From Candidatus Moraniibacteriota bacterium (lineage in GTDB: Bacteria > Patescibacteriota > Minisyncoccia > Moranbacterales > UBA1568), in NCBI GenBank assembly GCA_028711705.1, contig JAQTRS010000003.1, forward strand, positions 27,818 to 91,817: a DNA stretch of 64,000 bases, in the 5' to 3' direction. The notes under the pieces were generated by a model. It had not been told where the DNA came from. It searched no databases and saw only the letters and a program-made list of their open reading frames with translations. Positions 6,004 to 42,445 of this stretch are shown piece by piece. Position 1 is the first letter of the stretch, and the number at the start of each line of letters is the position of its first letter. The position numbers and the translations under genes are program-made.

Positions 6004-6013
6004 TAATCAAGTT

Positions 6014-6454: not shown

Positions 6455-6471
6455 GTCGCTTACACACTTTT

Positions 6472-6499
6472 GGCCGCAGACACACCCTGCGGCCTTTTT
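6472..6499 (+). terminator. rho-independent terminator (GGCCGCAG-loop-TGCGGCC, then TTTTT)
   Basis: Read directly. Confidence 0.65.
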
Positions 6500-6552
6500 G
6501 CATCCATCCTGAAATGCTATACTGAAGATATTATCCAACAGTCTGCTTTTTT

Positions 6553-9457: not shown

Positions 9458-9545
9458 AAAAAAGAATGTGCTTCGGATCTTGGGGAGTGGCTGTTTGGCG
9501 TACTCGGCAAGGCCGCGGAACAAGATCTGAAGCACATTCTCCCTA
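9458..9545. terminator. long hairpin / probable bidirectional terminator (20-bp arms AGAATGTGCTTCGGATCTTG / CAAGATCTGAAGCACATTCT, one mismatch)
   Basis: Read directly. Preceded by an A-run. Confidence 0.5.
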
Positions 9546-9597
9546 CTACATAATCTGCCTACCTCTTAAAACAAAAAAATGTTATCCTGAAGGCGCT

Positions 9598-11989: not shown

Positions 11990-12022
11990 AGAAACATCAA
12001 TGAAAAAGAAATGAGCACGCCA

Positions 12023-12925: not shown

Positions 12926-12954
12926 AAAAATATTCTTAGATACTCACACATATA

Positions 12955-15585: not shown

Positions 15586-15612
15586 TCGTATTTTTTGGTC
15601 AGGTGCGTGTGT

Positions 15613-16257
15613 TTATTTTACAAAAAGAACCGCGCTTGCTATCCCAAGTATAGCAGAGATATATGAAAATAAAAACGAGTATACTATTGAGCGTGATTGC
15701 GCGACGAGAAATCCCGAAAAAACAGCCATGGCAATCGCGATAAGAAATAATATATCCACTTTTCCGTGCGAACCTGCCACTAAAAACAACATGAAGAGCA
15801 GTGTCTGCATCGCTATCGCCTTCATCCCCCCGAATTTTTCCCACACGAAGAATACGAAACCTCGGAAGAAGAATTCGAAAATAAAGATATATACCCCGGT
15901 CACGAATAGGTAGAGGAGGAACATAAGGAAGCTCACGCGTATCGACAATGGCACCGCGAATCGGGCAAGGATATCCGTATAGTGGATCACCGCGGCCAGG
16001 CCTGCGACAATTCCCGAAAGCAGCACGATCATCCACAAGCTGCCTCGCAGCATCTTACCCAAAGAAAAACCGTATTCAGAAAGATCTCCTTTAAGGAGAA
16101 ACTTGACAAAGAATATCGGGAGAATGACCAGAAACACGCTGTCAGAAATGAGTGATTGAATAGCATTCTCGGTCGGGAAAAACGCCGCGGCCAACAAGCT
16201 AGCTACGATAATCGCATTACTCATCCAAAATTGCTTATTGTGTATCGACAGAGTCAT
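15613..16257 (-). CDS. polytopic membrane protein, possibly a CPBP/Abi-family intramembrane protease
   Basis: 214 aa, ~6 TM. Has an ExxxR-like motif (FEFFFRG) and candidate His residues. The motif match is weak. Confidence 0.35.
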   Translation of the reverse strand: MTLSIHNKQFWMSNAIIVASLLAAAFFPTENAIQSLISDSVFLVILPIFFVKFLLKGDLSEYGFSLGKMLRGSLWMIVLLSGIVAGLAAVIHYTDILARFAVPLSIRVSFLMFLLYLFVTGVYIFIFEFFFRGFVFFVWEKFGGMKAIAMQTLLFMLFLVAGSHGKVDILFLIAIAMAVFSGFLVAQSRSIVYSFLFSYISAILGIASAVLFVK

Positions 16258-16268
16258 TTCTTTGTATG

Positions 16269-16691
16269 TTAAGCCTCCAATTCAACGCGACTCTTACTTG
16301 CCTTCTTATCTATAAAATAAATGAATAAGACTGTCATGGTTTCTATGGGGAGCATATTGATTCCGATAAGCACACCTTCTGTCAGTGTTCCGATAAGCAA
16401 TATCAGGCTTTTTTTTGCGAGCGAGTATCGCTGGCCAGACCCACTCAGCATCAGCAAGAAAAAGATGAGGATGGAAAAGCAGAGCGTGATGATCGTCCCA
16501 AGCCCAGGAAGCGATCCTATGAATACCAAGTCAAGCAGATCTTTAAGGATGGCCACACAGAGCGCTGGCATATAGGAAAAGAAGGATACCGGCCGACCCG
16601 AGACTACCTGCCCTTTCGTGAGATGCCCCTGCGATTGCCTCCTGGCCTCGCGCTGGGTCGCCTTAAGCTTTTCATTCCATGTCGCATCCAT
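16269..16691 (-). CDS. small membrane protein (2-3 TM), T4SS-associated by position
   Basis: 140-aa hydrophobic ORF immediately downstream of the VirB4 ATPase gene. Confidence 0.45.
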   Translation of the reverse strand: MDATWNEKLKATQREARRQSQGHLTKGQVVSGRPVSFFSYMPALCVAILKDLLDLVFIGSLPGLGTIITLCFSILIFFLLMLSGSGQRYSLAKKSLILLIGTLTEGVLIGINMLPIETMTVLFIYFIDKKASKSRVELEA

Positions 16692-16694
16692 AGA

Positions 16695-18512
16695 TTAGCT
16701 GTTTTCATTCTCTTGATCAAAATCACGCTTCGCCTGTTCGATTTCCAAGAGCTGCCGCGGATCCGAAGTGATGATCTGATCCTCGCTATAGGACGCGATA
16801 ATTTTGATCGCCACATGCTTGGTGCCTGCAAAAAAGATCCCTTCCCCGACATTGCTTTCCAAAAGCAGGAACTTTTCATGATCGGTAAGATAGAAGGTTT
16901 CCGCGATCAGCTCGATAGACGCCGGGGATTGGCGTAGCAAAAGCTGCAGCGATGAGTTGGTCAGGATGGGTTTCCCATAGCGCGAGTGCATGAAATCACC
17001 AATATCCTGCGTAATCGTCGTCAGTCCCGTATAGTATTTGCGGCAGCGCTTGGCGATGCCATAGAGAAACGAAGCCGCATCCTCATGCTGCATCATCACC
17101 CACGCCTCATCCACGACGACGATGCGTTTCTTGAGCTCTGAGCGCATCTCATTCCAGATGAACTGCAGGATGATGTACATGGCGATAGGACGAAGCTCCT
17201 CCTCCAAATCACGGATATTGAAGACCACCAGCTGTTCCCGCAAGGACACATTCGTATGGCTGCTCAAAAAGCCCGCGAAGATGCCTTCGGTATACTTCTC
17301 AAGACGGGCTGCCAAAGACTCGGCGCCTTCCATATTCTTCAATACCTCATACAGGTCCACCATAGTAGGGAAGGCGTTGGATGGTATGTCTTTGAAGCGT
17401 CCCGTCGGTGTTATATCGCGGATAGCATAGGTTTCCCGTAAGGCGCGATCCAAAATCGAGTCTTCTTCCGGTGTCAGGTTGCCAAGCATCAGGTGGATCA
17501 AACCGATAAGGCCGGCAATAGTGTTTCGGAGCACCGCCGTCAGATCCTCGTCCTCGCCAACGCGCGGCAAATCGAACGGATTGAGGTGAAAACTCGTGCT
17601 CAGGTTGATGTCGATAAACGATCCGCCGACCATCTCGCACAAGTGACGGTACTCGTTTTCCGGATCGATAATGATCACGCCCGTGCCGAGCATCATCGAA
17701 CGCAGCACCTCAAGCTTCACGGTATAACTTTTTCCGGCACCGGATTTTGCGAACACCACCATATTGGCATTTTCCAATTTGAACCTATCGAATAGGATAA
17801 GACTATTATTGTGGCGATTGATACCATACAAGATGCCCTCATTTGAGGAAAGATCAGCGGAAACGAAGGGGAAGGTAGTGGAAAGCGGTGCGGTATTGAG
17901 ATTGTTGGCGATATCCAACACATCGGTCACGAGCGGACGGGTCGAAACGAATCCCTGCTCCATGCGCAGCACGGCCGGCTTGATATAGACCAGCTGCGAT
18001 TCCAGGATCGCCTCCACAGCCTGACTCATCCGATTGAGCTCATCTAGAGTTTGCGCGTACAATGTGATATATAGGCCAAAGCGGAAGAATTTTTCCGTCC
18101 CCTGCTGCAATTTATCCCGCAATTCTTCGATATCAGTAAGCGCTGTTTCAAGTATCGGATCACGCACTTTTCCACCTTCCTCCTCGATATGGATCTGCGA
18201 CTGCACCTGGGTCACGGATTTTCGCAGGTTTTTCAATATTTCCCGGGTATCGATCGGATGGATCATCATGGCAATATCCAAGGGAAAGTCCAGGTTAACG
18301 ATAGGCGAGAACCAATTCGTATTCAAATAGCGGGGATAGGCGACCACGAAATGCGTGCGTGCTATCGTTTCCCCCACCTGCATATAATTGGAACTGAGCT
18401 TGATCGCCGACGGAGCGATAAGGTCACGTATCGTCGCGATGCCTTTTTGATACAGTTCCTCACTTGCCAAAAATTCATCGGTAGTTATTTTATTTTTTGA
18501 AAAAAATGCCAT
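16695..18512 (-). CDS. VirB4/TrbE/CagE-family type IV secretion ATPase (ATPase domain)
   Basis: Walker A is FAKSGAGKSY. Walker B is IVVVDEAW. ~600 aa with the usual conjugative-ATPase layout. Confidence 0.85.
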   Translation of the reverse strand: MAFFSKNKITTDEFLASEELYQKGIATIRDLIAPSAIKLSSNYMQVGETIARTHFVVAYPRYLNTNWFSPIVNLDFPLDIAMMIHPIDTREILKNLRKSVTQVQSQIHIEEEGGKVRDPILETALTDIEELRDKLQQGTEKFFRFGLYITLYAQTLDELNRMSQAVEAILESQLVYIKPAVLRMEQGFVSTRPLVTDVLDIANNLNTAPLSTTFPFVSADLSSNEGILYGINRHNNSLILFDRFKLENANMVVFAKSGAGKSYTVKLEVLRSMMLGTGVIIIDPENEYRHLCEMVGGSFIDINLSTSFHLNPFDLPRVGEDEDLTAVLRNTIAGLIGLIHLMLGNLTPEEDSILDRALRETYAIRDITPTGRFKDIPSNAFPTMVDLYEVLKNMEGAESLAARLEKYTEGIFAGFLSSHTNVSLREQLVVFNIRDLEEELRPIAMYIILQFIWNEMRSELKKRIVVVDEAWVMMQHEDAASFLYGIAKRCRKYYTGLTTITQDIGDFMHSRYGKPILTNSSLQLLLRQSPASIELIAETFYLTDHEKFLLLESNVGEGIFFAGTKHVAIKIIASYSEDQIITSDPRQLLEIEQAKRDFDQENENS

Positions 18513-18548
18513 ACTGTGATTCTCTTGTTATATATTCACACCCCCATA

Positions 18549-19235
18549 CTATACCAGCGAACTCAGCTCGATATCCTTGATATTATTGGTCAATGTCGTG
18601 GAGAATAACGATGGGTTATAGGTATTGTAGAGCAATTCGATAGTCTCTTCCGTGTTCAGTGCCGCAACTTTCACGCCGGTCCCGGAAAGCCCCATGGTCA
18701 CGTGATCCACGCGTTGCCAGAGTTGGTTCTTATAGGTTTCAAAGAGTTCTCGCTGTTCATGTATGGCTTGTTTGGGATTAAGGATATTGCCTATCTTCTC
18801 AAAAAAGCCGCTATGTTCATCCTCGATAGCTGCGAAAGGCACGATAACATAGAAATACTTCGACATGATGTCGGATACTTCCGTAAGATTCTTGATAAAA
18901 TGTTGATACTCGGATATCTGAAGCCGCAAAAGCTCATTCATCTGCTCTTCCTCCTTTTCCTTGAGGAGCTGCAAATAGGGCTCTATATTGAATCTGCGAG
19001 AATGGATAAGCACCTGCACCGGAAAATCCAATGAATTGAGAAAAGCTTGGTACTGAGAAATGATAGCATCCTGCTCTTCGGTCGATTTCAGATCGAAATT
19101 CAGAGAGGATACTAAAAGAATAGCGCGCAAACCCCCGTTTCGCAGGACGACCACACCATCGCGAACCTCCTTCACATCGACGTATTGTTGTGTGCTCGCA
19201 TTCGATGATTTTTTGTTTTTCTGGGAACTCTCCAT
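18549..19235 (-). CDS. hypothetical protein, candidate detached N-terminal domain of VirB4
   Basis: 228 aa with no TM. Lies immediately upstream of the ATPase ORF, which at 605 aa is short for a VirB4. The segment VVLRNGGLRAILLVSSLNFDLKSTEEQDAIISQYQAFLNSL resembles a VirB4 N-terminal region. Confidence 0.4.
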   Translation of the reverse strand: MESSQKNKKSSNASTQQYVDVKEVRDGVVVLRNGGLRAILLVSSLNFDLKSTEEQDAIISQYQAFLNSLDFPVQVLIHSRRFNIEPYLQLLKEKEEEQMNELLRLQISEYQHFIKNLTEVSDIMSKYFYVIVPFAAIEDEHSGFFEKIGNILNPKQAIHEQRELFETYKNQLWQRVDHVTMGLSGTGVKVAALNTEETIELLYNTYNPSLFSTTLTNNIKDIELSSLV

Positions 19236-19250
19236 AAGATAGCTGCTTGA

Positions 19251-19649
19251 TTATTTTTGATTGTCGACTATTTTCGCCAGACGACTCACTTCATCCGCTG
19301 TCACCACTTTCTGCACGCTCACTATATGTGCCTCAGGCGTTTCCTTCACCTTCTTCGCGGATATGACTTTTGTAGGACGGTCCCATACATACACCTTCGG
19401 ACGCACTATGAACAGTATAGCATTGCCGATAAAGACGATGAGGGGCTGATTATACGGCCGATAGAAAGCGAGCGCCACAAAAATGCACACTACCGGCACG
19501 GCCGCTATAAAAAAAGCGAGCGGGTCATAGATATTCCAGAGTATCATGAGTACAGCAACCATGCCGATCATCCAAAGCAGCTGTTTCACGGTCAAAGGAC
19601 CTGCCACCTTATCTTCGACATCGATATATTGTGGGACATTGAATAGCAT
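19251..19649 (-). CDS. PrgI/VirB3-like small membrane protein
   Basis: 132 aa with two TM helices. Its position upstream of VirB4 matches Gram-positive conjugation loci. Confidence 0.45.
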   Translation of the reverse strand: MLFNVPQYIDVEDKVAGPLTVKQLLWMIGMVAVLMILWNIYDPLAFFIAAVPVVCIFVALAFYRPYNQPLIVFIGNAILFIVRPKVYVWDRPTKVISAKKVKETPEAHIVSVQKVVTADEVSRLAKIVDNQK

Positions 19650-19817
19650 AAGTGGAAGCGCTTTTTGAATAAAATGTTCACTACTCCGGAAAAAATGGCG
19701 TTGTGTCGTTCAAAACGCAACTTAGGTGAAGTTGTTTAGTGGCAACAAACAACAATTGCGGCTCTTGCTCGCCGACACGATGAATAGGAAATGCTACCTT
19801 TTCAGTATACCATACCT

Positions 19818-21116
19818 TTATTCATCCGATCGCAAATCCACGACGTTTTGCAATGCGGGAGGAATATCCCATACTTCTTTCTTCTGCGCGGTCGGCGATG
19901 GACCACTACTATAACCCAAACCGAAAGATGATTTCGCAGCCTTCGGTTTGAGCGAGGCGGCGCTTGTGGCTTGTTTTTCCGCCGGGAGCGTCTGCCCTGA
20001 TGAGAACTGGAATGCATCAGGTGAAGATGGATGAAGCGGCTTTAGTGTCAGAGGAGCAGCTTTTGGGGTAAATGAAGGCGTGCTTGAGAAATTTTTATCG
20101 GTAGCTGCTGACATTACGGACGAAGTCTGAGGCATGGCAGGAACAGATGGAGAGGATTTTGAAAAATTGAAGCTTTTGATGAATGGTGTCTGTGTCTTTG
20201 GAGGCATGGGAATTGATGACGCAGAGAAAGGTCTCGCTTCTGGCGCCGTAGCAGACGGAAAATCCTGATACGATTCCTGCATCTTGGCAGGCGCCGCCTT
20301 CGGAAGAGGGGCGGCTATGGGCTGCGCGGGCTTCGGCGCCGAAGTAGAGACAGATTTCGACAATGGCGGCATCGTCGGAGCGGCTGGAAATATGATCTCT
20401 TGCCTCTCTGCATCAATAGAAATCGGCTCATTCTCATCGAGTGATTTGAGTATCAATGAAATCTTCTCGCGGTCCTGCATCGTCAGATTCTTGGTATTTT
20501 CTGCCTGGAAAAGAAATTGCCCACGCTCAACGGAAGAGTGTTTCCGCGCGCCAACGATATCGCGGTAGGCACGCAGCCAGTTCCGCACCGATCCGCGTAC
20601 CAATTCTTTCTCGCTCCTGATTTTCAACCGGCTGCCGGTAACTTGCTGATCATTAAGACGGGAATACTTCGACAAAGCGTCAAGCAGGGCCATCTCCACA
20701 ATAGAGGCCTTTTTTACCGCCGCTTCTTCTGTCACCTTTTTTTCCGCCTTAAGCGTCAGTATTTCCGTTCGGATAAAATTCATAGCTGCCTCAACCTTAT
20801 CCTGCGGGAAATCCACATCATTTTTCAATGCGAGAGAGAATTGCTCGAGTGTTGTTTTCTTGAAATACAGCAATCGTAACAATGAGGCTGTTTTCATTGC
20901 AACATCATCGGTCAACTGCAGTAGCCCTTTCATTTTGAAAATCGCTTCAGCTACTAGTGGTGAACTTAGTGTTACATAAACATCCTCCGGAACATCACGA
21001 AGATTCATCCACATCGCCACACGCTCTGGTTGCGTCAAATACACCCCATTAGGGTGGATATTTACCAATAAAGGATCGAATTTCAACGCATCATTATTTG
21101 TCATAGAATCATTCAT
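19818..21116 (-). CDS. hypothetical protein with Pro/Ser/Ala-rich low-complexity C-terminal half
   Basis: 432-aa ORF with no TM or catalytic motifs. Lies between the VirB6-like and VirB3-like genes. Confidence 0.5.
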   Translation of the reverse strand: MNDSMTNNDALKFDPLLVNIHPNGVYLTQPERVAMWMNLRDVPEDVYVTLSSPLVAEAIFKMKGLLQLTDDVAMKTASLLRLLYFKKTTLEQFSLALKNDVDFPQDKVEAAMNFIRTEILTLKAEKKVTEEAAVKKASIVEMALLDALSKYSRLNDQQVTGSRLKIRSEKELVRGSVRNWLRAYRDIVGARKHSSVERGQFLFQAENTKNLTMQDREKISLILKSLDENEPISIDAERQEIIFPAAPTMPPLSKSVSTSAPKPAQPIAAPLPKAAPAKMQESYQDFPSATAPEARPFSASSIPMPPKTQTPFIKSFNFSKSSPSVPAMPQTSSVMSAATDKNFSSTPSFTPKAAPLTLKPLHPSSPDAFQFSSGQTLPAEKQATSAASLKPKAAKSSFGLGYSSGPSPTAQKKEVWDIPPALQNVVDLRSDE

Positions 21117-21154
21117 GTTTGTTTTTCAAAAAGACACAGGTCTACACGCTATGA

Positions 21155-23245
21155 CTATGCCCTAGACTTAACCCCGCCAACTTCCCATGCAGACACGATA
21201 GCTTCCCTATTTTCTCTCGCCATGGCAGCATAGGCCTCCTTCTGGGATTGTTCTGTCTTGAATGTCATATAGTCGATGAAATCCCTACTAATAAGCATCG
21301 TCTCATCTTGTTTCGCCATATCGTTCGCGCTAATCTTATTGAACACGTCAGCATAGGCTTTCTGCTGTGCAGCAGGTGTTATAGGTCCGGCGGCTTTGAG
21401 ACTATTCAGGTTGGACTGAACGCGAATATGGGCTTGACCCTGCTCCACGAGTCGCTTATCATACATCTTTTTCAAATCCCCGGTAGCGGCAATATCTATC
21501 ATCTCCTTACCGGAAGCATCTTTCATAACATTACCATTGGCATCCTTCTGTTTAATCTGCAATTGAGCAAGCACTTTATCATACCCTTCGCCGTTAGCAC
21601 CCAAAGCTCCCTTCTCAGCCTTGGCCACCATATCACCTAATAATTTCTGATTGCCATTAGCGTTAAGAATCTCAAGTGACTTTTCAAAATCACCTGCACT
21701 TTGAAGCACTGACTTCGGAGCTTTGGCGATAATACCCTTGGCCGCAGAAAGATCCTTACCCACCGCCTGCAAGGCCATCTGGAAATCACCAGCACCCGTG
21801 AGCGCTTCTTTTTCGGAAAGATACAAAGCGGCCGCCTTTTTCTTTTCAGGGGAAAATTTTTTATCACGCAGCATCGCTTGCGCTTGCGTCACATTACCAA
21901 GCTTCTTCAATGACTCCTGCTCAGCAGCCACCCGCTTCGCAAAAGCCGCATCCAATGCGTTCGCATGAGCCACAGTGCCCCCAGCAAGCAATGCAGCCAC
22001 ATTACCCTCACGTCTTTCCTGTGCCCGTCTCGCATCGCTTCCGAACATCATACGCCTATCTTTCCAAGCCTGTTTCACACCACCAGGAACACCGGTCCAG
22101 TTGGCAGCCCCTTTGGCGCCGCGCCATGGCTGGCGACCCGCCCATTTCACGAACATACTGCCATATTTGGTACCGGTATAACCAAGTTCACTGCTCATCT
22201 TTTCGGCGGAAGTGATAGCGATCCAAAAAAGAATGATTGGAACAGCAAAATACACAAGGGTCACCAAGATATCGGTGTTTATAGAGCCCGTATTCGCACC
22301 CATACCCTGAAATGTCGTTGCCATACCCATCTTCCAATTCTGCATCTGGCCAAGCACGCGGATACTCACCAACACCATAAATACCGCTATCGGTCCGTAC
22401 GAGGCATACTGAAACAACTTATCCCACCACTTCTTGGCATAGCCTTGGGTAATTGGGGCGGCCATACCAGCAAATCCGATTGGGGAAAACATCACCAATA
22501 TCGGCAAGGCCACTAAGCGGACAAGCAACATAAGCGAAAGCACGAGCAGGGTGATCATAAAGATGAACATCACGATGATAGCGAGGAAAATGAGCGCCCA
22601 ATCTGACTTAGCCCCTTGAGGCAGAAAAATCTTTTCCAATTGAGCGCCTCCTAAAATACCGCTCGCTGCCGCCGGACCCGTCGTTTGAAACACCGACTGC
22701 ACGAAAAAATACATCATGCTATTGAAGAAGTCGATAATGGTGCGAGAAATAGGCCAGCTGAAATTTACCAGCAAAGCCATGATGATCACCATCCACAAGA
22801 TGCGGTTATATTTATATTTATCCACCTGATAGATGGTGGCGAATGCCGAGAAAAGCAGGACGAGAATGAAGAGCATGTTCATGGTATCGCGGACGATTTT
22901 CCAGATTTCATAAAACACCCCATTATTCATGATACTGGAAAACGAATTCGGATCGAGGATATAGGCAAATAACACGGCGGCAGCATTGGCAAGACCGGCC
23001 TCGACACTCAGCAAGGCCACTGCAGCCGGCTTCAGCATCGAATCGATTCCGATTCCGATATCCGCTCCCACCTTCTCCCACGGACAGCTGCCATCATCCA
23101 AACTCTTCGTCCACCAACCGCAATCAGCGTGCGCTTGAGGCACCGCAAAAACAAACATCGACGAGAAGAGGAATACGGAAAGGAATACGGAAAAAACCTT
23201 CTTATACTGAATAAAAAGGTGAGAAACCTTGAATTGTATTTTCAT
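21155..23245 (-). CDS. VirB6/TrbL-like polytopic membrane protein with long hydrophilic C-terminal domain
   Basis: Signal-like N-terminus (start set at MKIQFK). At least 6 TM helices in the first ~400 aa. The rest is hydrophilic and K/A-rich. Confidence 0.55.
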   Translation of the reverse strand: MKIQFKVSHLFIQYKKVFSVFLSVFLFSSMFVFAVPQAHADCGWWTKSLDDGSCPWEKVGADIGIGIDSMLKPAAVALLSVEAGLANAAAVLFAYILDPNSFSSIMNNGVFYEIWKIVRDTMNMLFILVLLFSAFATIYQVDKYKYNRILWMVIIMALLVNFSWPISRTIIDFFNSMMYFFVQSVFQTTGPAAASGILGGAQLEKIFLPQGAKSDWALIFLAIIVMFIFMITLLVLSLMLLVRLVALPILVMFSPIGFAGMAAPITQGYAKKWWDKLFQYASYGPIAVFMVLVSIRVLGQMQNWKMGMATTFQGMGANTGSINTDILVTLVYFAVPIILFWIAITSAEKMSSELGYTGTKYGSMFVKWAGRQPWRGAKGAANWTGVPGGVKQAWKDRRMMFGSDARRAQERREGNVAALLAGGTVAHANALDAAFAKRVAAEQESLKKLGNVTQAQAMLRDKKFSPEKKKAAALYLSEKEALTGAGDFQMALQAVGKDLSAAKGIIAKAPKSVLQSAGDFEKSLEILNANGNQKLLGDMVAKAEKGALGANGEGYDKVLAQLQIKQKDANGNVMKDASGKEMIDIAATGDLKKMYDKRLVEQGQAHIRVQSNLNSLKAAGPITPAAQQKAYADVFNKISANDMAKQDETMLISRDFIDYMTFKTEQSQKEAYAAMARENREAIVSAWEVGGVKSRA

Positions 23246-23450
23246 TTTTTGCAGCACAGACGCTCTGCTAATGACTAAGATTTCATCACAATCGGAGTAT
23301 ACCACACAATGCAACGGGGTGCAAAAAAGGAATGACCTACTCGATCATCCCTTTTCTTGGGTCTTACGGTAAACTTCGTCGCAAGCTTATTTTTATGCCT
23401 TCTTGAGTATCATATCCTCCCTTGCTAAAATATTTCCTTAAGCCTTCTTT

Positions 23451-24641
23451 TTAATACACGTATCCCTTTATAGAACGGCTCGCTATCGGAATAACACGAC
23501 GATTCACCTTACCCCAACCTTTGTAGTTCATCTCGCTCACCGTAATGGTGCCGCTCCCGACACTTTCCACCAAGGCGACGTGCCCATAATACGGGCTGTC
23601 CGTCGTTACCACGATCGACCCGACCGTAGGGGATTTACCGGTCTTATATCCTTGCGCCTTCGCATTATACAGCCAGGTTCCCGCATTGCCGCCCCATGGC
23701 ACATAGCGTTTCTGCGCCACATACCACGTACAATACCCATACGGGAAGCGATGGCCAGTGCCTGCCTTACCCTCAAGTTTCTTCCATCCTGAAGAAATAT
23801 CGGTTGCGGTTCCCGCTCCGGAAGAGGTTGCATACTGACGACGGAGCGTATCGCTCGTGTCCGTCTGCGTCGGTTTTGGAATCTCCTTTTGTCCGTCCGG
23901 AATAACAATTTCCTGATCGTTTTTTATTTCGCCATTGGCAGGCAATTCATTGAATGCGATGATGCGACCCTTATCCGCATGATACTTCTGCGCGATAGAG
24001 TCCAAAGTCTCACCATTTTGCACCGTGTGCGTCACGCCGGCCACCGGCAGAATAAATATCTGGTCTCCCGGCTTGATGGCGTCAACATTCTCCAAGTCGT
24101 TCGCCCACAAGATAGTATTGACCGTAATAAAGTTTTTGGCAGCGATACCGCTCACGGTATCACCCTCCTTTACCGTATATATGCTCACGCCACCGTCTTC
24201 TTCCGGATCCTTCATGATACCGACCGAAGAAGCCACGATTTGACTTCCCTGTGATCCTGTTGACATATCAGCCACCGACAAGACCATATCTTTTTCTTCA
24301 GGATCCACCTTGGTAGACGCGCTCGCTAATGGCACGAGCGATAAGCTGTCTTTTTTACTTGCCTGACCGGCAATTTTATGTTTCGCAAGAGAAGCCTCAC
24401 CGGATTCATCCTGAAAATACCCTGATAAAAATCCGCCGGATTCATCGGTAGCGGCCACATTCGTTCCGGTTACCAAAAAAGCGCTTCCCACAACAACCGA
24501 AAGCGCTGAATAATTCCTGAACAAATGAAGGAAATAAAGCGTCTTGTGCTGTTTGAGATACTGTGTCAGACGTTTCTGGGCTCGATAGACTCGAGTCTGA
24601 AAGTCCCTAAACCTTAGCCGCTTGTGCTTGAAAGAATTCAA
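23451..24641 (-). CDS. membrane-anchored peptidoglycan hydrolase: two LysM domains plus a C-terminal CHAP domain
   Basis: LysM segments are YTVKEGDTVSGIAAKN and HTVQNGETLDSIAQKY. CHAP Cys is GYCTWYV and His is GHVALV. Confidence 0.8.
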   Translation of the reverse strand: MNSFKHKRLRFRDFQTRVYRAQKRLTQYLKQHKTLYFLHLFRNYSALSVVVGSAFLVTGTNVAATDESGGFLSGYFQDESGEASLAKHKIAGQASKKDSLSLVPLASASTKVDPEEKDMVLSVADMSTGSQGSQIVASSVGIMKDPEEDGGVSIYTVKEGDTVSGIAAKNFITVNTILWANDLENVDAIKPGDQIFILPVAGVTHTVQNGETLDSIAQKYHADKGRIIAFNELPANGEIKNDQEIVIPDGQKEIPKPTQTDTSDTLRRQYATSSGAGTATDISSGWKKLEGKAGTGHRFPYGYCTWYVAQKRYVPWGGNAGTWLYNAKAQGYKTGKSPTVGSIVVTTDSPYYGHVALVESVGSGTITVSEMNYKGWGKVNRRVIPIASRSIKGYVY

Positions 24642-24856
24642 GCCTGTGCGTAGAAGATTATTACTAATATGATCGATCCTTCAGTTAAGTTTACACCGTA
24701 GAGAACCAACACCCTCGTGTTTAAGCGGTGTCTCATTGGAGCAAACCCTAATTTTTATGTATTCCCATAGTACTAGACCCTCGGAATTTTGTCAATGTAA
24801 AATGACACAAAATTGCCATTTTTTGGCTTGTATAAAGCATATGGTACAATACGGGT

Positions 24857-25783
24857 ATGCCTACTATCCATACCTGGAAGCGCCGATTCCTTGAATACCT
24901 TGAGATCGAGCTCAACCGGTCGCTCAAAACCATAGAAAACTATGATCAGTGCCTGAATCAGTTTTTCATCTGGTCGAAAATCAAAAAACCACAGGATATC
25001 ACCACCGAGATGATACGGAAATACCGCCTTTTTCTCAATCATCCCTCCACCATCCATAAGGATGCTCTCAAAAAAAACTCCCAGTCGCATCACGTCATCA
25101 TCCTACGTACCTTCCTTAAATTCCTCACCAAACAAGAACTCTCCGTTGTATCGCCTGAAAAAATTGAGGTGGGCAAGTCGCCCATGCGGCAAGTGGACTT
25201 CTTAGAACTCGAGGAAATCGAGCGGCTTTTCGCCGCCGCCTCGGGAAAAAGCTTCAAATCTCTCCGTGACAGAGCCATCCTCGAACTCCTTTTTTCCTCC
25301 GGGCTCCGTGTTTCCGAGCTGGTCAACCTCAACCGCGACCAGATCAACCTTGAAAAACAGGAATTCAGCGTCCGCGGCAAAGGCGGTAAGGTTCGACTCA
25401 TATTCCTCTCCATTCAAGCCAGACAGGCTCTGGAAGCTTATCTACACAAACGAAGCGATGTCGATCAGGCTCTTTTCGTCGCCTATTCGAAGGGCTTTGG
25501 AAAAAAAACAAACGATGCTGAGCTTCGTCTCACGCCCCGTACCATACAACGCATCGTCAAATACTATACGCTTAAAGCCGGCATCGTAAAAGATGTCCAC
25601 CCGCACACGCTGCGACACAGCTTCGCCACCGACCTTCTTGCCAATGGCGCCGATATCCGCAGCGTACAGGCTATGCTCGGGCACGCTTCCATCACCACAA
25701 CCCAGGTCTACACCCACGTCGTCGACAAAGGCCTTCGCGAAATCTACAAGCAATTCCACGGAAAAAGAACTAAAAAGGGCTGA
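24857..25783 (+). CDS. tyrosine site-specific recombinase (XerC/XerD family)
   Basis: Catalytic region HPHTLRHSFATDLLANGADIRSVQAMLGHASITTTQVYTHV carries the R..H..R..Y residues. Confidence 0.85.
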   Translation: MPTIHTWKRRFLEYLEIELNRSLKTIENYDQCLNQFFIWSKIKKPQDITTEMIRKYRLFLNHPSTIHKDALKKNSQSHHVIILRTFLKFLTKQELSVVSPEKIEVGKSPMRQVDFLELEEIERLFAAASGKSFKSLRDRAILELLFSSGLRVSELVNLNRDQINLEKQEFSVRGKGGKVRLIFLSIQARQALEAYLHKRSDVDQALFVAYSKGFGKKTNDAELRLTPRTIQRIVKYYTLKAGIVKDVHPHTLRHSFATDLLANGADIRSVQAMLGHASITTTQVYTHVVDKGLREIYKQFHGKRTKKG

Positions 25784-25819
25784 ATTTTCAATAGCCTTGT
25801 ATGCTCATTACACACACTG

Positions 25820-34023: not shown

Positions 34024-34139
34024 AACATTACCGGGAGAATATTTTCAAATATTTTTGCCAATATCCCTTTATTTAAGAGTTTTTTATCCACATTTTCCAC
34101 ACCTTATACACTCTATTATACCAAAACCATCCCCATTGT

Positions 34140-34523
34140 CTAGAAAAATATATGCTCCAGATGCCGCACTTTCGCATTTTTAGTATGCGGATCGATCAAG
34201 ATAGAGAGTGCATCGAAACGATATTCCTTCTTCCAAAGCTTTTTTATCGTCAAATAGGTCGATGCGATCTTTTCAAGATGCCTCAGTTTTTGAGGAGATA
34301 TATTCTCCTCAGGCAAAACCGTATCACTGCTTCTTGCGATCCGTGTCTTCACTTCCACAAAGATGATTATTTCTCCCTGAAGAGCGATAATGTCGATTTC
34401 TCCGTATTTATATCCTTTGGTATTCTGAAAATTTCTTTCAACGATCGCATACCCTTTTCTTTGAAGGTAGGTGCAAGCGATGGATTCTCCAAGGGTTCCG
34501 ACGGATTGAGAAGAAGGGATCAT
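34140..34523 (-). CDS. yraN: YraN/UPF0102-family endonuclease
   Basis: GEIDIIALQGEIIIFVEVKTR matches the PD-(D/E)xK-like core typical of YraN. Confidence 0.7.
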   Translation of the reverse strand: MIPSSQSVGTLGESIACTYLQRKGYAIVERNFQNTKGYKYGEIDIIALQGEIIIFVEVKTRIARSSDTVLPEENISPQKLRHLEKIASTYLTIKKLWKKEYRFDALSILIDPHTKNAKVRHLEHIFF

Positions 34524-34559
34524 AAATATATACGTATAAATTATTTTTTTCTTTATGGT

Positions 34560-35695
34560 TACTACTAGTGCGGTGCATTAGTGGATAAGGGACATCTCCT
34601 TTTAGGTAAAGAGTTTTTTAGAATACTTCTTTGTGTATAAATGGAAGCATCATTGTGAAAATGGTAGATACGTGAGTGATGTGGAGAATAAGAGGATAAC
34701 TTATGAACCAATGTTCTTAGGTTACGCAAGAATTAAACACGTAGATACCCCCAAAAACCAAGCGGTTACGAACGCTTTATACACATTTTATCAACAAATC
34801 AGCGGGATGTATGTGTGTAAGAATGTGCATAAGTGGTAAACATTGTGAATAAGCGTAGTCTGCTTGGGTTCCATTTAAAGAATAATGCAGAGGAGATAAA
34901 ATAAAAAGAGTTTAAGGAATTATGCAATATACATCGTGGATTTTAGTATAAAAAAACACCCTATAGGTGAATGGTTGGAGGTGGAGTTTGTTGGTGTCGG
35001 AGAGCTCAGTGACGCCTTAAATAAAGATTATTGGGCAGTGTGAGCTATCCGACGTTGCATGTGCCAACATGTGTAGTGTGATTATCCCATCCCTGATGGT
35101 ATATCCCCGGGTGAGAAGATATGGTATCTTAAGATGAATCTAATCAAGCTTTCTACGCATGTAATATGTGCGCATGCTCCTTAATGATGTTTATCTGACT
35201 TTACATCTTTTCTCTTTACCGTTCTCTGGTACTTGACCTTTGTTTAAAGAACTGGTTTTTTTGTTTATTTTGATTTTATCCCTTATTTTTTATTTTTTGT
35301 AAGGGCACGCCTAAGTCAGTTATCTATCCGCTAGCATAGTGCTAGTAAGCAGAGAACTGACTTAGAACATGTTTTTATTTTTGTTTTATAGTTCCTCGGT
35401 CAGATCGAGGGAGATCTTACATTGAAGATCATTTGAACAGTAAGAGAATTCCAATCACAAATAGGGGGAAATTGTGATTGGAAACACTCTCACGGTTCAT
35501 AGGTTGTCAAAGTTCTTTCCGTACTCTTATAGATATAGTATAGCAGAAAAAATAGGCTGAGTCAATAAATGATGCGAAGCACTCCTTGTTTTTATTTCTA
35601 TAAAGGATCACACATCACCATGTGTATTTTTGTGGGCTGATGCTCCACTTGGCTGATTGAAAATGCTTCCCTTCTTTTTCTTTTAAAGAGCGCAT
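34560..35695. other. ~1.1 kb AT-rich region with no ORFs, containing several local inverted repeats. Candidate ncRNA locus or decayed insertion.
   Basis: Stops in all six frames. Composition is visibly AT-richer than the flanks. Hairpins include CCAATCACAA...TTGTGATTGG and TAAGTCAGTT...AACTGACTTA. Confidence 0.5.
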
Positions 35696-35733
35696 AAAAA
35701 AATAATTCTCTTTTGAGGGAGAATTATTTTTCT
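35696..35733. terminator. bidirectional rho-independent terminator (AATAATTCTC / GAGAATTATT, flanked by an A-run and a T-run)
   Basis: Read directly. Lies immediately 3' of the minus-strand gene ending at 35749. Confidence 0.6.
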
Positions 35734-35748
35734 GATCTTTCTTATTTT

Positions 35749-36777
35749 TTAGCGGACGATATCCAAAAGCGCGTGATGCGTTTTCATACTTGTCCCGATG
35801 ATAAGATACGTTGTCGTTGTGGCGTAATCGACGGAGAGGCCCGTCTCTGGATGAATATTGTTATAGCGAAGCGAAATGTTTTTATAGATGCCGTTACTGA
35901 ACGTCGCCGTCGTTTTTGTCGGAGTGTCATTAAGGAAGAGTGGCGATAGGCCTTGTACGAGTGTTGCCTCGTCCTGTTTCATGGCTGCCTGGATCGCATT
36001 TTTATCCCTAAACTCAATAGATAGTCCTATGCGCGGTGTTTGATCGCTTGTATAGATGAATAATGAGAAGTTTTCAGAAAGTGCCGCAAGCGTCGCTTGA
36101 GAAAGTTGTATTCCGGAGAGTTGTGCGAATGAGGCGAATGGTATCGGAGTATTGTTCGTATCGGTGATGATGAATTCGATAGGCGTAGCGCTATTGAGAG
36201 CAGCTACCTGTTTCGCTGTTTGCAGGAGGGTAGTTTGCAGTGTCTGCGGTGTTGAATTATTAGCATCAATAGGAAGGTAGTTGGGTGTTTCGGTTGAGAA
36301 TAGGGTGAGCATTTCTTGCTCATCGATCGCATGAGAGTCTTTTGTTACGATCTGTTCTTCTATAGAAGGTGCTTCAGTGGGAGTTTCGCGTGTTGTTATG
36401 AAATAGTATATTCCACCGATAGATACTAGTACGACAAGTATGATCGCTGGGATAATAATTTTTGAGGAAGAAGATGTTTGAGGTTGTATGCTGATGTTTG
36501 AAGTAGACACCGGTAGCGGTGTTGCGTGTGCATAGGTATCGGATGACGATACAGTATCGACCGCTTGTTCATTATTAATGAAGGGGTTTTGATTGATGAA
36601 TGTTTGCTTGTGTGTGCCGTCTTGATTGATGACAGAAGGATTTTGCTGTAAGGGAGCGTCTTCTTGGTATATGACGCCGTTTATAGCATCAAGATCATCC
36701 TGCATAGTTTTGATTACCGCCCCATTATTTGCGGAATCGCTCTGGCCAGGCAAGGGTTTTTTAGAAAATAGAGACAT
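35749..36777 (-). CDS. hypothetical single-pass membrane protein
   Basis: 342-aa ORF with one TM (IIIPAIILVVLVSIGGIYYFI). Ser/Thr/Gln-rich. Confidence 0.55.
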   Translation of the reverse strand: MSLFSKKPLPGQSDSANNGAVIKTMQDDLDAINGVIYQEDAPLQQNPSVINQDGTHKQTFINQNPFINNEQAVDTVSSSDTYAHATPLPVSTSNISIQPQTSSSSKIIIPAIILVVLVSIGGIYYFITTRETPTEAPSIEEQIVTKDSHAIDEQEMLTLFSTETPNYLPIDANNSTPQTLQTTLLQTAKQVAALNSATPIEFIITDTNNTPIPFASFAQLSGIQLSQATLAALSENFSLFIYTSDQTPRIGLSIEFRDKNAIQAAMKQDEATLVQGLSPLFLNDTPTKTTATFSNGIYKNISLRYNNIHPETGLSVDYATTTTYLIIGTSMKTHHALLDIVR

Positions 36778-40198: not shown

Positions 40199-40636
40199 TC
40201 ATTTTTTATTTGAAGCTAGGCATTTTTCCAAAAGCATGGAGAGCTGCAAAGACTCATTTGTATGCAGATGACCGCATATTTCCTTGCTGAGGGTAAGATT
40301 GGTGGACTCGAATATCTTTTGCAGCATCGATCCTTTCGCAGTCAGAAAAATGCGGCGAACCCTTTTGTCTCGGGCATCATTGACGAGCTTGATATACCCG
40401 CGTTGATGTAATTCCCGTACGTATATACCGATAGTTTGCTTGGTCATTTTTGTGGCGCGCGCAAGTTCTGATGCGCTTTGTCCATCGTTCTCAAAAAGGG
40501 GAAAAAATACAGCACAGAACGATGGCTTCAAATTATAGTAGCCCTTGGAGCGTAAGATATCCATAAACCGCTGATTCCAGACGCGAGTTACCTGAGATAA
40601 GGCATACCCAAGGCTTTTTTGGTATTTTTGTTTCAT
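40199..40636 (-). CDS. MarR-family transcriptional regulator
   Basis: 145 aa. Winged-helix core is ASELARATKMTKQTIGIYVRELHQRGYIKLVNDARDKRVRRIFLTAKG. Confidence 0.8.
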   Translation of the reverse strand: MKQKYQKSLGYALSQVTRVWNQRFMDILRSKGYYNLKPSFCAVFFPLFENDGQSASELARATKMTKQTIGIYVRELHQRGYIKLVNDARDKRVRRIFLTAKGSMLQKIFESTNLTLSKEICGHLHTNESLQLSMLLEKCLASNKK

Positions 40637-40936: not shown

Positions 40937-42445
40937 ATGAATTTTTTTAAAACCGTACTCAAAAATAGGTGTGAGGATATCGATATATGGCTTTTTCTAG
41001 GCTTTCTTTTGGTCTTACCTTTATCTGTACGGAAAGTCATTTGGTATATTCCTCTGCGCGGATCTTTCAATGAGTATGCGGATATTTCAGTATATGCTTC
41101 AGATATTTTTCTTGTAGCGGCCATCAGTACCTGGATTATAAAGGAGTACAATAATATACATATTTTGTCAATAGATAAAAAATGTTTCACATGGAACATG
41201 CTGAGTGTTATCTCCATACGATCTCTTTTACTCTTCCTCCCATTGATTTTGATTGTATGGACGTCTTTATCTCTATTTTACGCGATAGAACTGTATATAG
41301 GTGTATTTTTTGTGGTTAAGTTGTTGGAATTGTATGGAATGTATCTATTTCTTATTTTCCGACTTGTTCCATGTGGAACAAAATTCATAACAGGAAGGAT
41401 ACCTACTTTCAAGGCGACTATTTGGAGTATAATGCTGGTGGGTGTGGCAGAGTCTTTGTTGGGGATAATTCAATTTTTACGACAACGCTCACTAGGACTC
41501 TCTTTTCTTAAGGAGAGTGTTATTGATCCGTCAATGCCGGGAGTTGCTAAGATAATTGTAGATGGTAGTCAATATATACGTTCTTATGGAACGTTTCCGC
41601 ACCCTAATATATTCGCTGGATTTCTTTTGATATCCATTATCGTGAGTCATTTCTACTTGAAGCAGTTTCACGTGGAACAAAATCGAGTACGAGTAGGGAA
41701 TGTAATCGTATTACTTGTTCAATATGTCGGGATTGTCCTCACATTTTCAAAATCAGCAATTATCGGCCTTGGTCTCGCATTGATGTATGTTGGGGTTGTT
41801 TCACGTGGAACGCAATCAGATATGCAATTAATGGGAGGGAGATTTTTAGTAAGGATGAAGAATTTGTTTCACGTGAAACATCACAAGTGGATAATATTGA
41901 CAGCGGCTACGGGTGTGGGAATTATTATAGCTGGATTTCTGTTGAACATAAATGCTGATGCCTTATTTTTTCAATCCCTCAGGGAACGTGATCTATACCA
42001 AAAGATAGCCATCGATGTTATCCAGAAGTATAGTATTTTGGGGATAAGTTGTGGACAACTCGTCATATTTATGTCCCAACAGGGTATTTATCCACTACTT
42101 GAGTGGCAATTGCAACCGGTCCACAATGTTTTTCTTCTCGTCTGGGCAGAGCTCGGCGTGGGGGGTTTTTGTATATTTTTACTATGGTACCTTCTTGTGT
42201 TGGTATCGCCAGTGCGTGATGAAAAACAAAGAAGGAGGAGTAGAGACCTTTTTATGCAAGTTGTTTCACGTGGAACAGACATGTTCGCACGGATGGAGGT
42301 GTATTGGCGTGCGATAGTATGGGGGATGCTTCCGGTACTTCTTTTCGATCATTATTTATGGGATATTCAACAAGGACAACTCATGCTGTGGCTTGTGATG
42401 GGAATGTCCGTAGGGTGTATATTACATCATAAAAGTATATATTAA
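40937..42445 (+). CDS. O-antigen ligase-like (Wzy_C) polytopic membrane protein, third paralog. Carries six palindromic inserts.
   Basis: Signature QPVHNVFLLVWAELGVGGF. ~12 TM helices. The near-palindromic 14-mers fall in hydrophilic loops. Confidence 0.65.
   Translation: MNFFKTVLKNRCEDIDIWLFLGFLLVLPLSVRKVIWYIPLRGSFNEYADISVYASDIFLVAAISTWIIKEYNNIHILSIDKKCFTWNMLSVISIRSLLLFLPLILIVWTSLSLFYAIELYIGVFFVVKLLELYGMYLFLIFRLVPCGTKFITGRIPTFKATIWSIMLVGVAESLLGIIQFLRQRSLGLSFLKESVIDPSMPGVAKIIVDGSQYIRSYGTFPHPNIFAGFLLISIIVSHFYLKQFHVEQNRVRVGNVIVLLVQYVGIVLTFSKSAIIGLGLALMYVGVVSRGTQSDMQLMGGRFLVRMKNLFHVKHHKWIILTAATGVGIIIAGFLLNINADALFFQSLRERDLYQKIAIDVIQKYSILGISCGQLVIFMSQQGIYPLLEWQLQPVHNVFLLVWAELGVGGFCIFLLWYLLVLVSPVRDEKQRRRSRDLFMQVVSRGTDMFARMEVYWRAIVWGMLPVLLFDHYLWDIQQGQLMLWLVMGMSVGCILHHKSIY
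41184..41197. repeat. near-palindrome copy 1: GTTTCACATGGAAC
   Basis: Read directly. Confidence 0.7.
41367..41380. repeat. near-palindrome copy 2: GTTCCATGTGGAAC
   Basis: Read directly. Confidence 0.7.
41665..41678. repeat. near-palindrome copy 3: GTTTCACGTGGAAC
   Basis: Read directly. Confidence 0.7.
41798..41811. repeat. near-palindrome copy 4: GTTTCACGTGGAAC
   Basis: Read directly. Confidence 0.7.
41866..41879. repeat. near-palindrome copy 5: GTTTCACGTGAAAC (perfect palindrome)
   Basis: Read directly. Confidence 0.7.
42263..42276. repeat. near-palindrome copy 6: GTTTCACGTGGAAC
   Basis: Read directly. Confidence 0.7.

Follow-up and report, generated by a model that had tools for sequence, protein, structure and literature searches.

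A probable parS centromere array inside the loop-coding parts of a WaaL-like membrane-protein gene in Moranbacteria and related Parcubacteria

The window (the whole stretch of DNA that was analysed, 64 kb in length) holds a probable replication origin and, in its vicinity, a gene for a polytopic membrane protein within which six short palindromes are found. These palindromes, candidate parS sites, are numbered below along the window.

34084..34852, no strand assigned: probable core of oriC, ~770 bp with nine 9-mers that resemble the DnaA box (TTATCCACA, one mismatch or none)
34524..35748, no strand assigned: non-coding gap of 1.2 kb that contains the right part of the DnaA-box cluster along with two structured blocks of high conservation
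40937..42445, plus strand: host gene, encoding an intact 502-aa polytopic membrane protein with a Wzy_C / WaaL O-antigen-ligase fold
41183..41198: candidate parS-1, TGTTTCACATGGAACA, 1 mismatch to TGTTNCACGTGAAACA, core CACATG; peptide CFTWN, loop residues 83-87
41365..41380: candidate parS-2, TGTTCCATGTGGAACA, 2 mismatches, the weakest of the six; peptide VPCGT, residues 144-148
41664..41679: candidate parS-3, AGTTTCACGTGGAACA, 1 mismatch, in the outermost base; peptide FHVEQ, residues 244-248
41797..41812: candidate parS-4, TGTTTCACGTGGAACG, 1 mismatch, in the outermost base; peptide VSRGT, residues 288-292
41865..41880: candidate parS-5, TGTTTCACGTGAAACA, identical to the consensus and palindromic over all 16 bp; peptide FHVKH, residues 311-315
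42262..42277: candidate parS-6, TGTTTCACGTGGAACA, identical to the consensus when read on the minus strand (TGTTCCACGTGAAACA); peptide VSRGT, residues 443-447

The NCBI gene call for the host gene is truncated, with MDD5083887.1 covering only residues 171-502. The full-length protein matches Pfam Wzy_C (PF04932) at 31.7 bits, a score equal to the cutoff, and its homologues, for which phmmer returned 5169 matches, carry PF04932; NCBIfam has no model for this subfamily. An AlphaFold (AF2) model of the protein (pTM 0.85) gave a sole significant fold match in the PDB, WaaL 7tpg_B (E 1.9e-5; Foldseek prob 1.00), and the catalytic-loop residues R215, H222 and H396 are invariant in the alignment. By the Pfam match, the modelled fold of ~12 TM helices and the conserved Arg/His of the periplasmic loops, which it has in common with WaaL (PDB 7TPG) at ~11% sequence identity, the host protein is Wzy_C / WaaL-like, with a putative ligase activity. 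A CPR bacterium is not expected to make LPS. None of the described Wzy_C/WaaL family members has been reported with centromere sites. DnaA-box-like words are 2.6-fold denser in the host gene than in its flanks, a weak signal as the gene is also more AT-rich.

An exact search for GTTYCANNTGRAAC across the 64 kb returned six matches, at 41184, 41366, 41665, 41798, 41866 and 42263, all within the ORF at 40937-42445(+) and spanning 41184-42276, with zero elsewhere, against a chance expectation of 0.01 (0 of 100 dinucleotide-preserving shuffles gave six). Allowing one mismatch to GTTYCANNTGRAAC added a single match in the 64 kb, at 48352, which is unrelated. An initial annotation of this DNA had described a motif confined to the gene, with four CACGTG cores and one perfect palindrome, and this description holds: the core occurs in four of the six copies and the copy at 41866 is the perfect palindrome GTTTCACGTGAAAC. 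Five of its positions stand as given, and the second copy, which it placed at about 41367, begins at 41366.

With one flanking base included on each side, the six copies correspond to the 16-bp parS TGTTNCACGTGAAACA, two of them exactly, three with one mismatch and one with two mismatches, and nothing comparable was found elsewhere in the 64-kb window. This is the universal parS consensus, with half-sites GTTCCAC/GTTTCAC (PMC7022226), and judged by sequence the copies are of that kind, that is, a 16-bp inverted repeat of GTTCCAC or GTTTCAC. The two copies with core mismatches (CACATG and CCATGTGG) may bind weakly. The density of the array is 5.5 sites per kb, and reaches ~7 per kb in relatives. 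The initial annotation had proposed a site read by a dimeric DNA-binding protein, which was the right kind of site, and had missed that the motif corresponds to the ParB-binding parS and lies near an origin.

The origin-proximal location was seen from nucleotide skew and DnaA boxes. The cumulative GC-skew minimum of the window is at ~34459, within the DnaA-box cluster and ~7 kb from the array, and the skew changes sign at ~34.5 kb even though minus-strand genes flank this point to the left and to the right. The DnaA boxes of the oriC core are kept in three related loci (L005, L006 and L010), dnaA is ~39 kb from the array, and Rfam gave no family match at the array locus or the oriC gap. Among relatives, the cumulative skew minimum fell inside the ~20-kb locus in 32 of 47 cases and the maximum in 4 of 47, the minimum being at a median of 4.7 kb from the array. 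The DnaA-box cluster at the skew minimum is thus a probable oriC, and the array is origin-proximal, as chromosomal parS sites are. With respect to the skew minimum, the host gene has no conserved orientation (~11 loci co-directional, ~21 head-on).

To follow the array across the lineage, 80 species-level GTDB loci were picked via seeds unrelated to parS (WQxQPVHN and RxYGxFPHP) and scanned for strict parS sites. We found 449 strict parS words in 137 kb of gene versus 5 in 1157 kb of flanks, a 761-fold enrichment, with at least one site in 76 of the 80 genes, at least three in 68, and a maximum of 14. A phmmer sample, which uses no word index, had parS peptides in 146 of 150 cluster representatives (median 5, maximum 18). 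Word-indexed protein search preselects by shared 5-mers and could have created such an enrichment as an artefact; this was ruled out, as word-index-free phmmer and the parS-independent seeds had the same outcome. In the inverse direction, the host-gene family holds 1 of 120 metagenome loci with close parS pairs, and the pairs outside the family are mostly intergenic and adjoin parA. Across these ultra-small CPR bacteria, Moranbacteria and their relatives, the parS array seen at the locus is thus almost entirely contained in loop-coding segments of this one conserved membrane-protein gene.

Within the protein, the sites avoid the membrane-spanning parts. None of the six window sites is in a hydrophobic core; they occupy helix ends or short basic loops and match the only places where the AlphaFold model, elsewhere confident, has dips or segments of low confidence (pLDDT <50 at 75-90, 292-314 and 438-441; dips at ~141-150 and ~241-250), in agreement with the initial placement of the motif in inter-helix loops. 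The loops that hold them are flexible and probably cytoplasmic. Family-wide, 36 of 1379 parS peptides are in TM cores, and the peptides cluster in ~8 hot spots whose positions are the same down to ~30% protein identity. About 45% of the sites in the family are in segments that are inserted when compared with the query protein, protein length rises with site count (rho 0.45, p = 2e-12), and in one relative (L003) a 114-nt module with three sites is present in three loops, its copies being 83-86% identical. Several relatives (L005/L006, L007, L068 and L079) have degenerate sites only.

The conservation is that of a DNA word. The six window sites use three reading frames (CFTWN, VPCGT, FHVEQ, VSRGT, FHVKH and again VSRGT), and the initial annotation was right to assign the conservation to DNA instead of peptide. 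In most hot-spot loops of the family all three frames are used, and in every case the DNA behind a parS peptide is the parS word itself or differs from it by 1-2 nt. Alignment of 454 sites from the 80 relatives gave the consensus TGTTCCACGTGGAACA, in which all 16 positions are near-perfectly conserved; T at -1 and A at +14 are 99% conserved, though absent from the search pattern. Information in the site logo falls to background ~5 nt outside the 16-mer, so that the conserved unit is a palindrome of 22-24 bp, and a longer mobile element around the sites is ruled out by the same logo. Because frames are mixed in the hot-spot loops and conservation is limited to this palindrome, selection acts on the DNA. 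The word is conserved independently of its coding context, as expected of parS, and the recurring pentapeptides (VPRGT, CSTWN, FHVEQ) are a DNA-level artefact and no protein motif. Strong purifying selection at the DNA level thus maintains an orthologous array in this gene in 76 or more species-level genomes, from Moranbacteria and related Parcubacteria.

The linkage to parAB that is classical for parS is absent from the CPR array. ParA and ParB genes were absent from the 64-kb window in Pfam scans of ~50 ORFs and in tblastn at E up to 10, which returned chance-level matches only (E >= 3.9), and with Spo0J and Soj as tblastn probes none was found within 10 kb of the gene in ~85 related genomes (~1.4 Mb). 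As a control, the same probes placed ParA or ParB next to 59 of 120 parS pairs of other bacteria (49%). This inspection covered ~2% of each CPR genome, and absence from the flanks says little about the remainder. The literature searched has no mention of ParB or parS in CPR.

Taken together, we consider it probable that the six palindromes are the parS centromere array of the chromosome, an element already known but arranged in a way that is apparently unreported. A ParB dimer of the canonical type, with its gene in another part of the genome, would nucleate at the sites, close into CTP-dependent clamps and slide onto neighbouring origin DNA by analogy with known ParB, and the resulting partition complex would mark and segregate the origin and probably load SMC, as in other bacteria. 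A parS with GGAAC half-sites would be stop-free in three frames and would yield short polar peptides (C-S/F-T-W-N, V-P/S-R-G/E-T and F-H-V-E/K-Q/H), which may do little harm in flexible loops, most of them cytoplasmic and thus across the membrane from the predicted catalytic periplasmic loops; the sites could reside inside a WaaL-fold gene because of these two properties. Site number would shift by in-frame insertion or duplication of short parS modules and by decay of individual sites. Transcription across a ParB-loaded array would be expected to disturb clamp sliding or expression, and the placement is not obviously neutral.

Several other explanations could account for parts of these observations. 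The initial annotation had proposed, among others, an operator array for the MarR-type regulator encoded at 40199-40636, ~300 bp upstream of the host gene across a tRNA-Ala gene, and MarR dimers do bind palindromes. However, a MarR homologue occurs within 10 kb in 1 of the 80 loci while arrays occur in 76, and the sites are internal to a coding sequence over 1.1 kb and not in a promoter, so that the operator proposal fails. Its companion suggestion, recombination or phase variation of a glycan ligase, found no evidence among the conserved neighbours, which include no recombinase (the nearest in the window is ~15 kb off, at 24857-25783), or in the ORF, which is intact and collinear with homologues; we regard either of these readings as very improbable. 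Somewhat less remote, and still improbable, are selfish mini-insertions of MITE or REP type, palindromes that would insert preferentially where loops are encoded and would look like parS while having no host function. A copy number from 0 to 18, the many sites in insertions, the L003 module and the greater number of sites in longer proteins all agree with growth by in-frame insertion or duplication, and this part of the initial suggestion of selfish insertions stands. A dispersing element is contradicted by the near-absence of sites from 1.16 Mb of flanks, by a conserved unit of 22-24 bp with no longer element body or terminal repeats, by a core identical to parS at 16 of 16 positions, by hot spots shared among distant homologues, and by an array that adjoins the origin as a centromere would. 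REP and MITE repeats are likewise short multicopy palindromes that gain copies by insertion; the CPR sites differ in being in one gene, in frame, conserved over 22-24 bp only and identical to parS.

It is also possible, with a likelihood that we rate as low though above that of selfish insertions, that the array is orphaned, ParB having been lost in reduced genomes and the palindromes being read by another protein or persisting as slowly decaying relics. The lack of parAB in the window and related loci, the lineages with degenerate sites only and the core mismatches in two of six window sites could be read this way. Conservation of 16 positions over 454 sites in 80 species, however, requires an active sequence-specific reader, of which ParB is the sole one known, and given the small part of each genome inspected the absence from flanks is a weak argument. 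A different proposal, which we hold to be unlikely, extends the parS reading without replacing it, namely that the placement is itself functional. Either the 12-TM protein, translated and inserted into the membrane while its gene is transcribed (transertion), would tether the ParB-parS complex and with it the origin, or ParB loading and sliding would repress or time the surface-glycan ligase and so couple envelope synthesis to the chromosome cycle. The array is almost exclusively in one orthologous polytopic membrane-protein gene in >70 species with intergenic DNA nearby, it is unlinked to parAB where 49% of control loci are linked, and for other bacteria there are descriptions both of silencing by ParB close to parS and of a crosstalk between ParB and capsule synthesis (PMC7022226). 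Against this, loop tolerance together with historical contingency (an ancient origin-proximal gene) could suffice, gene orientation relative to the skew minimum varies, and several lineages kept the gene while the sites decayed. As a speculation that we hold to be unlikely overall, the centromere of Moranbacteria and related Parcubacteria may have moved from parAB into the membrane-protein gene since the placement is functional, serving as a transertion anchor, with ParA perhaps dispensable, or letting ParB clamps gate the glycan ligase once per cell cycle; in a stronger variant, canonical ParB would be absent and another reader would take its place. If true, the transertion anchor would constitute a mechanism of segregation or origin positioning for tiny cells in which ParA is possibly unneeded.

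If the palindromes are the parS array, as we favour, the result places a CPR centromere precisely, along with the probable origin, in CPR/Patescibacteria, a large and mostly uncultured share of bacterial diversity; the literature searched holds nothing on how these organisms organise and segregate their chromosomes. A WaaL-like gene with VPRGT, CSTWN and FHVEQ peptides could serve as a signature for the origin region in fragmentary MAGs, while in annotation these pentapeptides should not be taken as a protein motif and the truncated NCBI call should be kept in mind. The arrays also take dual coding to an extreme, one ORF holding as many as 14 protein-binding palindromes (18 if peptides are counted) with all frames in use. 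For the ParB field they raise the questions of how clamps and RNA polymerase share one gene, why the array is unlinked from parAB, and whether membrane insertion takes part in origin positioning.

Comparison with known systems sets out what is particular to this arrangement. B. subtilis parS/ParB (Spo0J), with 10 sites of consensus TGTTNCACGTGAAACA, 8 of them in the ori domain, resembles the CPR array in its palindrome, multiple copies and origin-proximal domain; those sites are spread out around oriC over hundreds of kb (PMC7022226), whereas all sites detected in the CPR window are in 1.1 kb of one coding sequence that has no parAB for tens of kb around it. A cluster of comparable density is that of Myxococcus xanthus, where 22 parS sites of consensus TGTTCCACGTGGAACG lie in ~3 kb, ~4 kb upstream of parA (PMC3899335), forming a very dense cluster of the GTTCCAC/GTGGAAC variant near the origin. 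That cluster adjoins parAB and is not described as lying within the loops of one membrane-protein gene (PMC3899335), unlike the CPR arrays, which are unlinked to parAB. Translated sites differ in number and setting: B. subtilis spo0J has a single parS, in parB itself, as opposed to 3-18 sites in all three frames in the loops of an unrelated membrane protein in CPR. The site within the spo0J (parB) coding sequence is functional and provides a precedent for a translated parS. The Spo0J sequence, which we take to contain VPRET, a reading of parS also seen in the array family, matches PDB chains 6sdk and 5noc.

We searched the whole 64 kb for GTTYCANNTGRAAC and found six exact matches, at 41184, 41366, 41665, 41798, 41866 and 42263, all inside the ORF 40937-42445 (+) and none in the rest of the window, against a chance expectation of 0.01 from dinucleotide-preserving shuffles. 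Allowing one mismatch added a single, unrelated match at 48352. The initial annotation had described six copies of a near-palindrome in one gene only, and the exact search confirms this; five of its coordinates stand, the sixth moves by one base (to 41366), and the CACGTG core in four copies and the one perfect palindrome were both recovered. Extended by one base on each side, the copies read as the universal chromosomal parS site TGTTNCACGTGAAACA, the binding word of the partition protein ParB, whose consensus and half-sites GTTCCAC and GTTTCAC are documented in a review (PMC7022226). Beyond these six, the window holds no word with fewer than three mismatches to TGTTNCACGTGAAACA.

parS copies in the window and their match to TGTTNCACGTGAAACA
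41865-41880, parS copy, exact match
42262-42277, parS copy, exact match
41183, parS copy, one mismatch
41664, parS copy, one mismatch
41797, parS copy, one mismatch
41365, parS copy, two mismatches

The host ORF, from a Candidatus Moranbacteria MAG (CPR/Patescibacteria), is intact and encodes a 502-aa polytopic membrane protein whose Pfam Wzy_C score is exactly at threshold; no NCBIfam model covers its subfamily. A phmmer search found 5169 homologues. R215, H222 and H396, in loops of catalytic type, are invariant, and the confident AlphaFold model (pTM 0.85) has the WaaL O-antigen ligase 7TPG as its sole significant PDB match. The sites encode the peptides CFTWN, VPCGT, FHVEQ, VSRGT, FHVKH and VSRGT, all at the ends of helices or in loops that are short and basic. 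Confidence in the model is low at these positions only, which bears out the inter-helix placement seen on first reading. The order of the helices, the positive-inside rule and the location of the catalytic loops suggest that the parS-bearing loops are cytoplasmic. The NCBI protein for this gene, MDD5083887.1, spans residues 171-502 only. Homologues conserve the 170 N-terminal residues that it lacks, so this gene call is truncated, and it makes two parS sites appear intergenic. Two more Wzy_C paralogues (8199-9452 and 9466-10863) lie in a polysaccharide-biosynthesis locus with flippase and GT2 genes at 4555-8195; neither carries parS, and the array is therefore a feature of a single orthologue rather than of the fold.

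A search that preselects by shared 5-mers gave parS-encoded pentapeptides in 114 of its best 120 homologues. Because of this preselection, two unbiased controls were run. A phmmer search with no word index against 1.84 billion representatives gave, in its top 150, at least one parS peptide in 146 proteins and at least three in 126 (median 5 per protein, maximum 18). The second control scanned one genome per GTDB species with seeds unrelated to parS (WQxQPVHN and RxYGxFPHP) and found 538 relatives, of which the best 80 were taken with 10-kb flanks. In these 80 loci the strict word GTTYCACGTGRAAC was 761-fold denser in the gene (449 occurrences in 137 kb) than in the flanks (5 in 1157 kb); at least one site was present in 76/80 genes and at least three in 68/80 (median 5.5, maximum 14). 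The genomes are labeled Moranbacteria/Moraniibacteriota, Parcubacteria, Paceibacterota or Patescibacteria, with a few automatic labels plainly wrong, and synteny with gyrA, lactamase_B, rpsA-like S1, tilS, ftsH and pnp identifies the host genes as orthologues.

In an alignment of 236 members, 1379 parS peptides group in ~8 hot spots, with only 36 within TM cores. At most hot spots the various lineages between them draw on all three reading frames; at ~310-320 and ~350-360 one frame prevails, as would fit old sites passed down vertically. The peptides are invariably encoded by parS itself or by a word 1-2 nt away from it, never by a synonymous alternative. Selection thus acts on the DNA word and not on the peptide, in line with the DNA-level conservation that the initial annotation had read from the differing frames. 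The dominant CPR form, TGTTCCACGTGGAACA, is stop-free in all frames; the TGAAAC half-site reads TGA in one frame, which is never used for that half-site because TGA is a stop there. In a logo of 454 sites from the 80 species loci, the T and A that bound the 16-mer are 99% conserved, although the search pattern left both free, and short symmetric A/T flanks are kept around it (AAAnT...AnTTT; A at -3 in 92% and T at +16 in 88%, in every reading frame), with information content back to background ~5 nt outside the 16-mer. The flanks suggest that the reader in this lineage makes additional contacts or has a DNA-bending preference.

The parS sites of bacterial chromosomes occupy the origin-proximal domain (PMC7022226). 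Cumulative GC skew in the window runs downward from position 1 to ~34.5 kb and upward after; since every gene to either side of the switch (29.7-34.5 kb and 35.7-40.6 kb) is minus-strand, the sign change is due to replication rather than transcription. A 1.2-kb non-coding gap and nine DnaA-box-like 9-mers (34084-34852) mark this point, and the boxes are kept in relatives with proteins only ~50% identical. We regard this as the probable oriC, with the array ~7 kb to its right. The dnaA gene (874-2325, two perfect DnaA boxes upstream at 2393 and 2425) is ~32 kb to its left, and none of the 37 relatives with full flanks has dnaA within 10 kb of the ligase gene. Beside the box cluster are two non-coding blocks (34950-35300 and 35385-35500; counterparts in two related loci, L005 4100-4474 and L010 4054-4554), restricted to the closest relatives and free of Rfam matches; they share 85-97% identity across genomes in which the neighboring proteins share just ~50%. 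Fold z-scores for block A are -3.1 (plus strand) and -5.5 (minus strand), and block B has a three-hairpin fold with two compensatory pairs; the two may represent undescribed ncRNAs or parts of the origin. The adjoining 35749-36777 (also L005 4728-5816) encodes a conserved 342-362 aa protein with no Pfam or NCBIfam match. Words resembling the DnaA box (9-mers with up to one mismatch) also number 7 in the ligase gene (41311-42096), and over 80 loci they are ~2.6-fold denser there than in flanks (0.90 vs 0.34 per kb), an excess of uncertain significance given the gene's lower GC (0.35 vs 0.40). Further left, ~12000-25800 holds a T4SS-like cluster (pilin PF18895, TraG/VirB4-like ATPase, CHAP/LysM hydrolase, several large family-less proteins) closed by a tyrosine recombinase (24857-25783), which may be an integrated element or a CPR-typical T4SS-like apparatus.

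Neither ParB nor ParA is encoded in the window, and neither was found within 10 kb of the host gene in ~85 genomes (~1.4 Mb total). The probes were sequences of B. subtilis Spo0J (ParB) and Soj (ParA), validated by their matches to PDB chains (6sdk, 3e-121; 8ray, 1e-91). As a positive control, 120 metagenome loci with two perfect parS sites 18-45 nt apart yielded ParA and/or ParB on the same contig in 59, with a median of 164 bp from the parS pair to parA; the host-gene family accounted for just a single locus among them (L189, a seven-site Wzy_C protein). The arrangement is thus unlike the classical locus in which parS adjoins parAB. For all 16 positions to be conserved in 80 species, a sequence-specific reader is needed, and ParB is the only known reader of this word, so that ParB is presumably encoded elsewhere in array-bearing genomes.

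Other readings were weighed against parS. An operator array read by the adjacent MarR, one of the initial suggestions, is rejected, as a MarR homologue is linked in just 1/80 loci. Tiny selfish palindromic insertions, also suggested there, would account for gains in copy number, but leave unexplained the confinement to one gene, the 22-24-bp conserved extent, the identity to parS and the origin-adjacent position. Nothing supports sites for recombination or phase variation: the neighbors include no conserved recombinase, and host ORFs are collinear across homologues. An orphan array left after loss of ParB is a less likely possibility, as it fits poorly with the strength of site conservation. 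The motif is real and is parS, and it most likely serves as the chromosome's centromere beside oriC, with the ParB step inferred. That placement within the host gene is itself functional, through membrane tethering by transertion or ParB-gated ligase expression, seems doubtful.

Sites are gained and lost within the family. About 45% lie in insertions relative to the query in the 236-member alignment, and site number correlates with protein length (rho 0.45). In one relative (L003), a 114-nt in-frame module with three parS sites, one per frame, is copied in three separate loops; its internal spacings, 41 and 50 nt, are also the commonest across the family.

Copies of the 114-nt module in L003 (83-86% identity)
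10676-10789, module copy
10955-11068, module copy
11375-11488, module copy

The L005/L006 orthologue (51% identical) has four sites at exactly orthologous positions with a constant 90-nt offset, all with core mismatches; sites are likewise degenerate, with the gene retained, in L007, L068 and L079. In L069 the gene is site-free and two perfect sites (8706, 9655) lie within 1.3 kb upstream. Such lineages might serve as natural experiments on the loss of ParB or on array relocation.

A single parS within the spo0J ORF of B. subtilis is the classic coding-embedded case, and the peptide VPRET is present in our validated Spo0J probe. The CPR array resembles that of M. xanthus, where 22 sites lie in ~3 kb, 4 kb from parA, in being dense, origin-proximal and of nearly the same consensus (PMC3899335). 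What appears to be new is that an entire local array (3-18 sites) has its conserved home in loops of one WaaL-fold membrane-protein gene throughout a large CPR lineage, that it draws on all three reading frames, and that it is unlinked to parAB; searches of open-access papers found nothing relevant on parS-encoded peptides or on parS/ParB in CPR groups, and an earlier account may exist elsewhere. An unrelated low-GC metagenome contig (L115, 6596-7460) has four parS sites located at, and extending into, the 5' end of an ORF for a methyltransferase, and coding-embedded parS may thus occur in other small-genome lineages with hosts other than a membrane protein.
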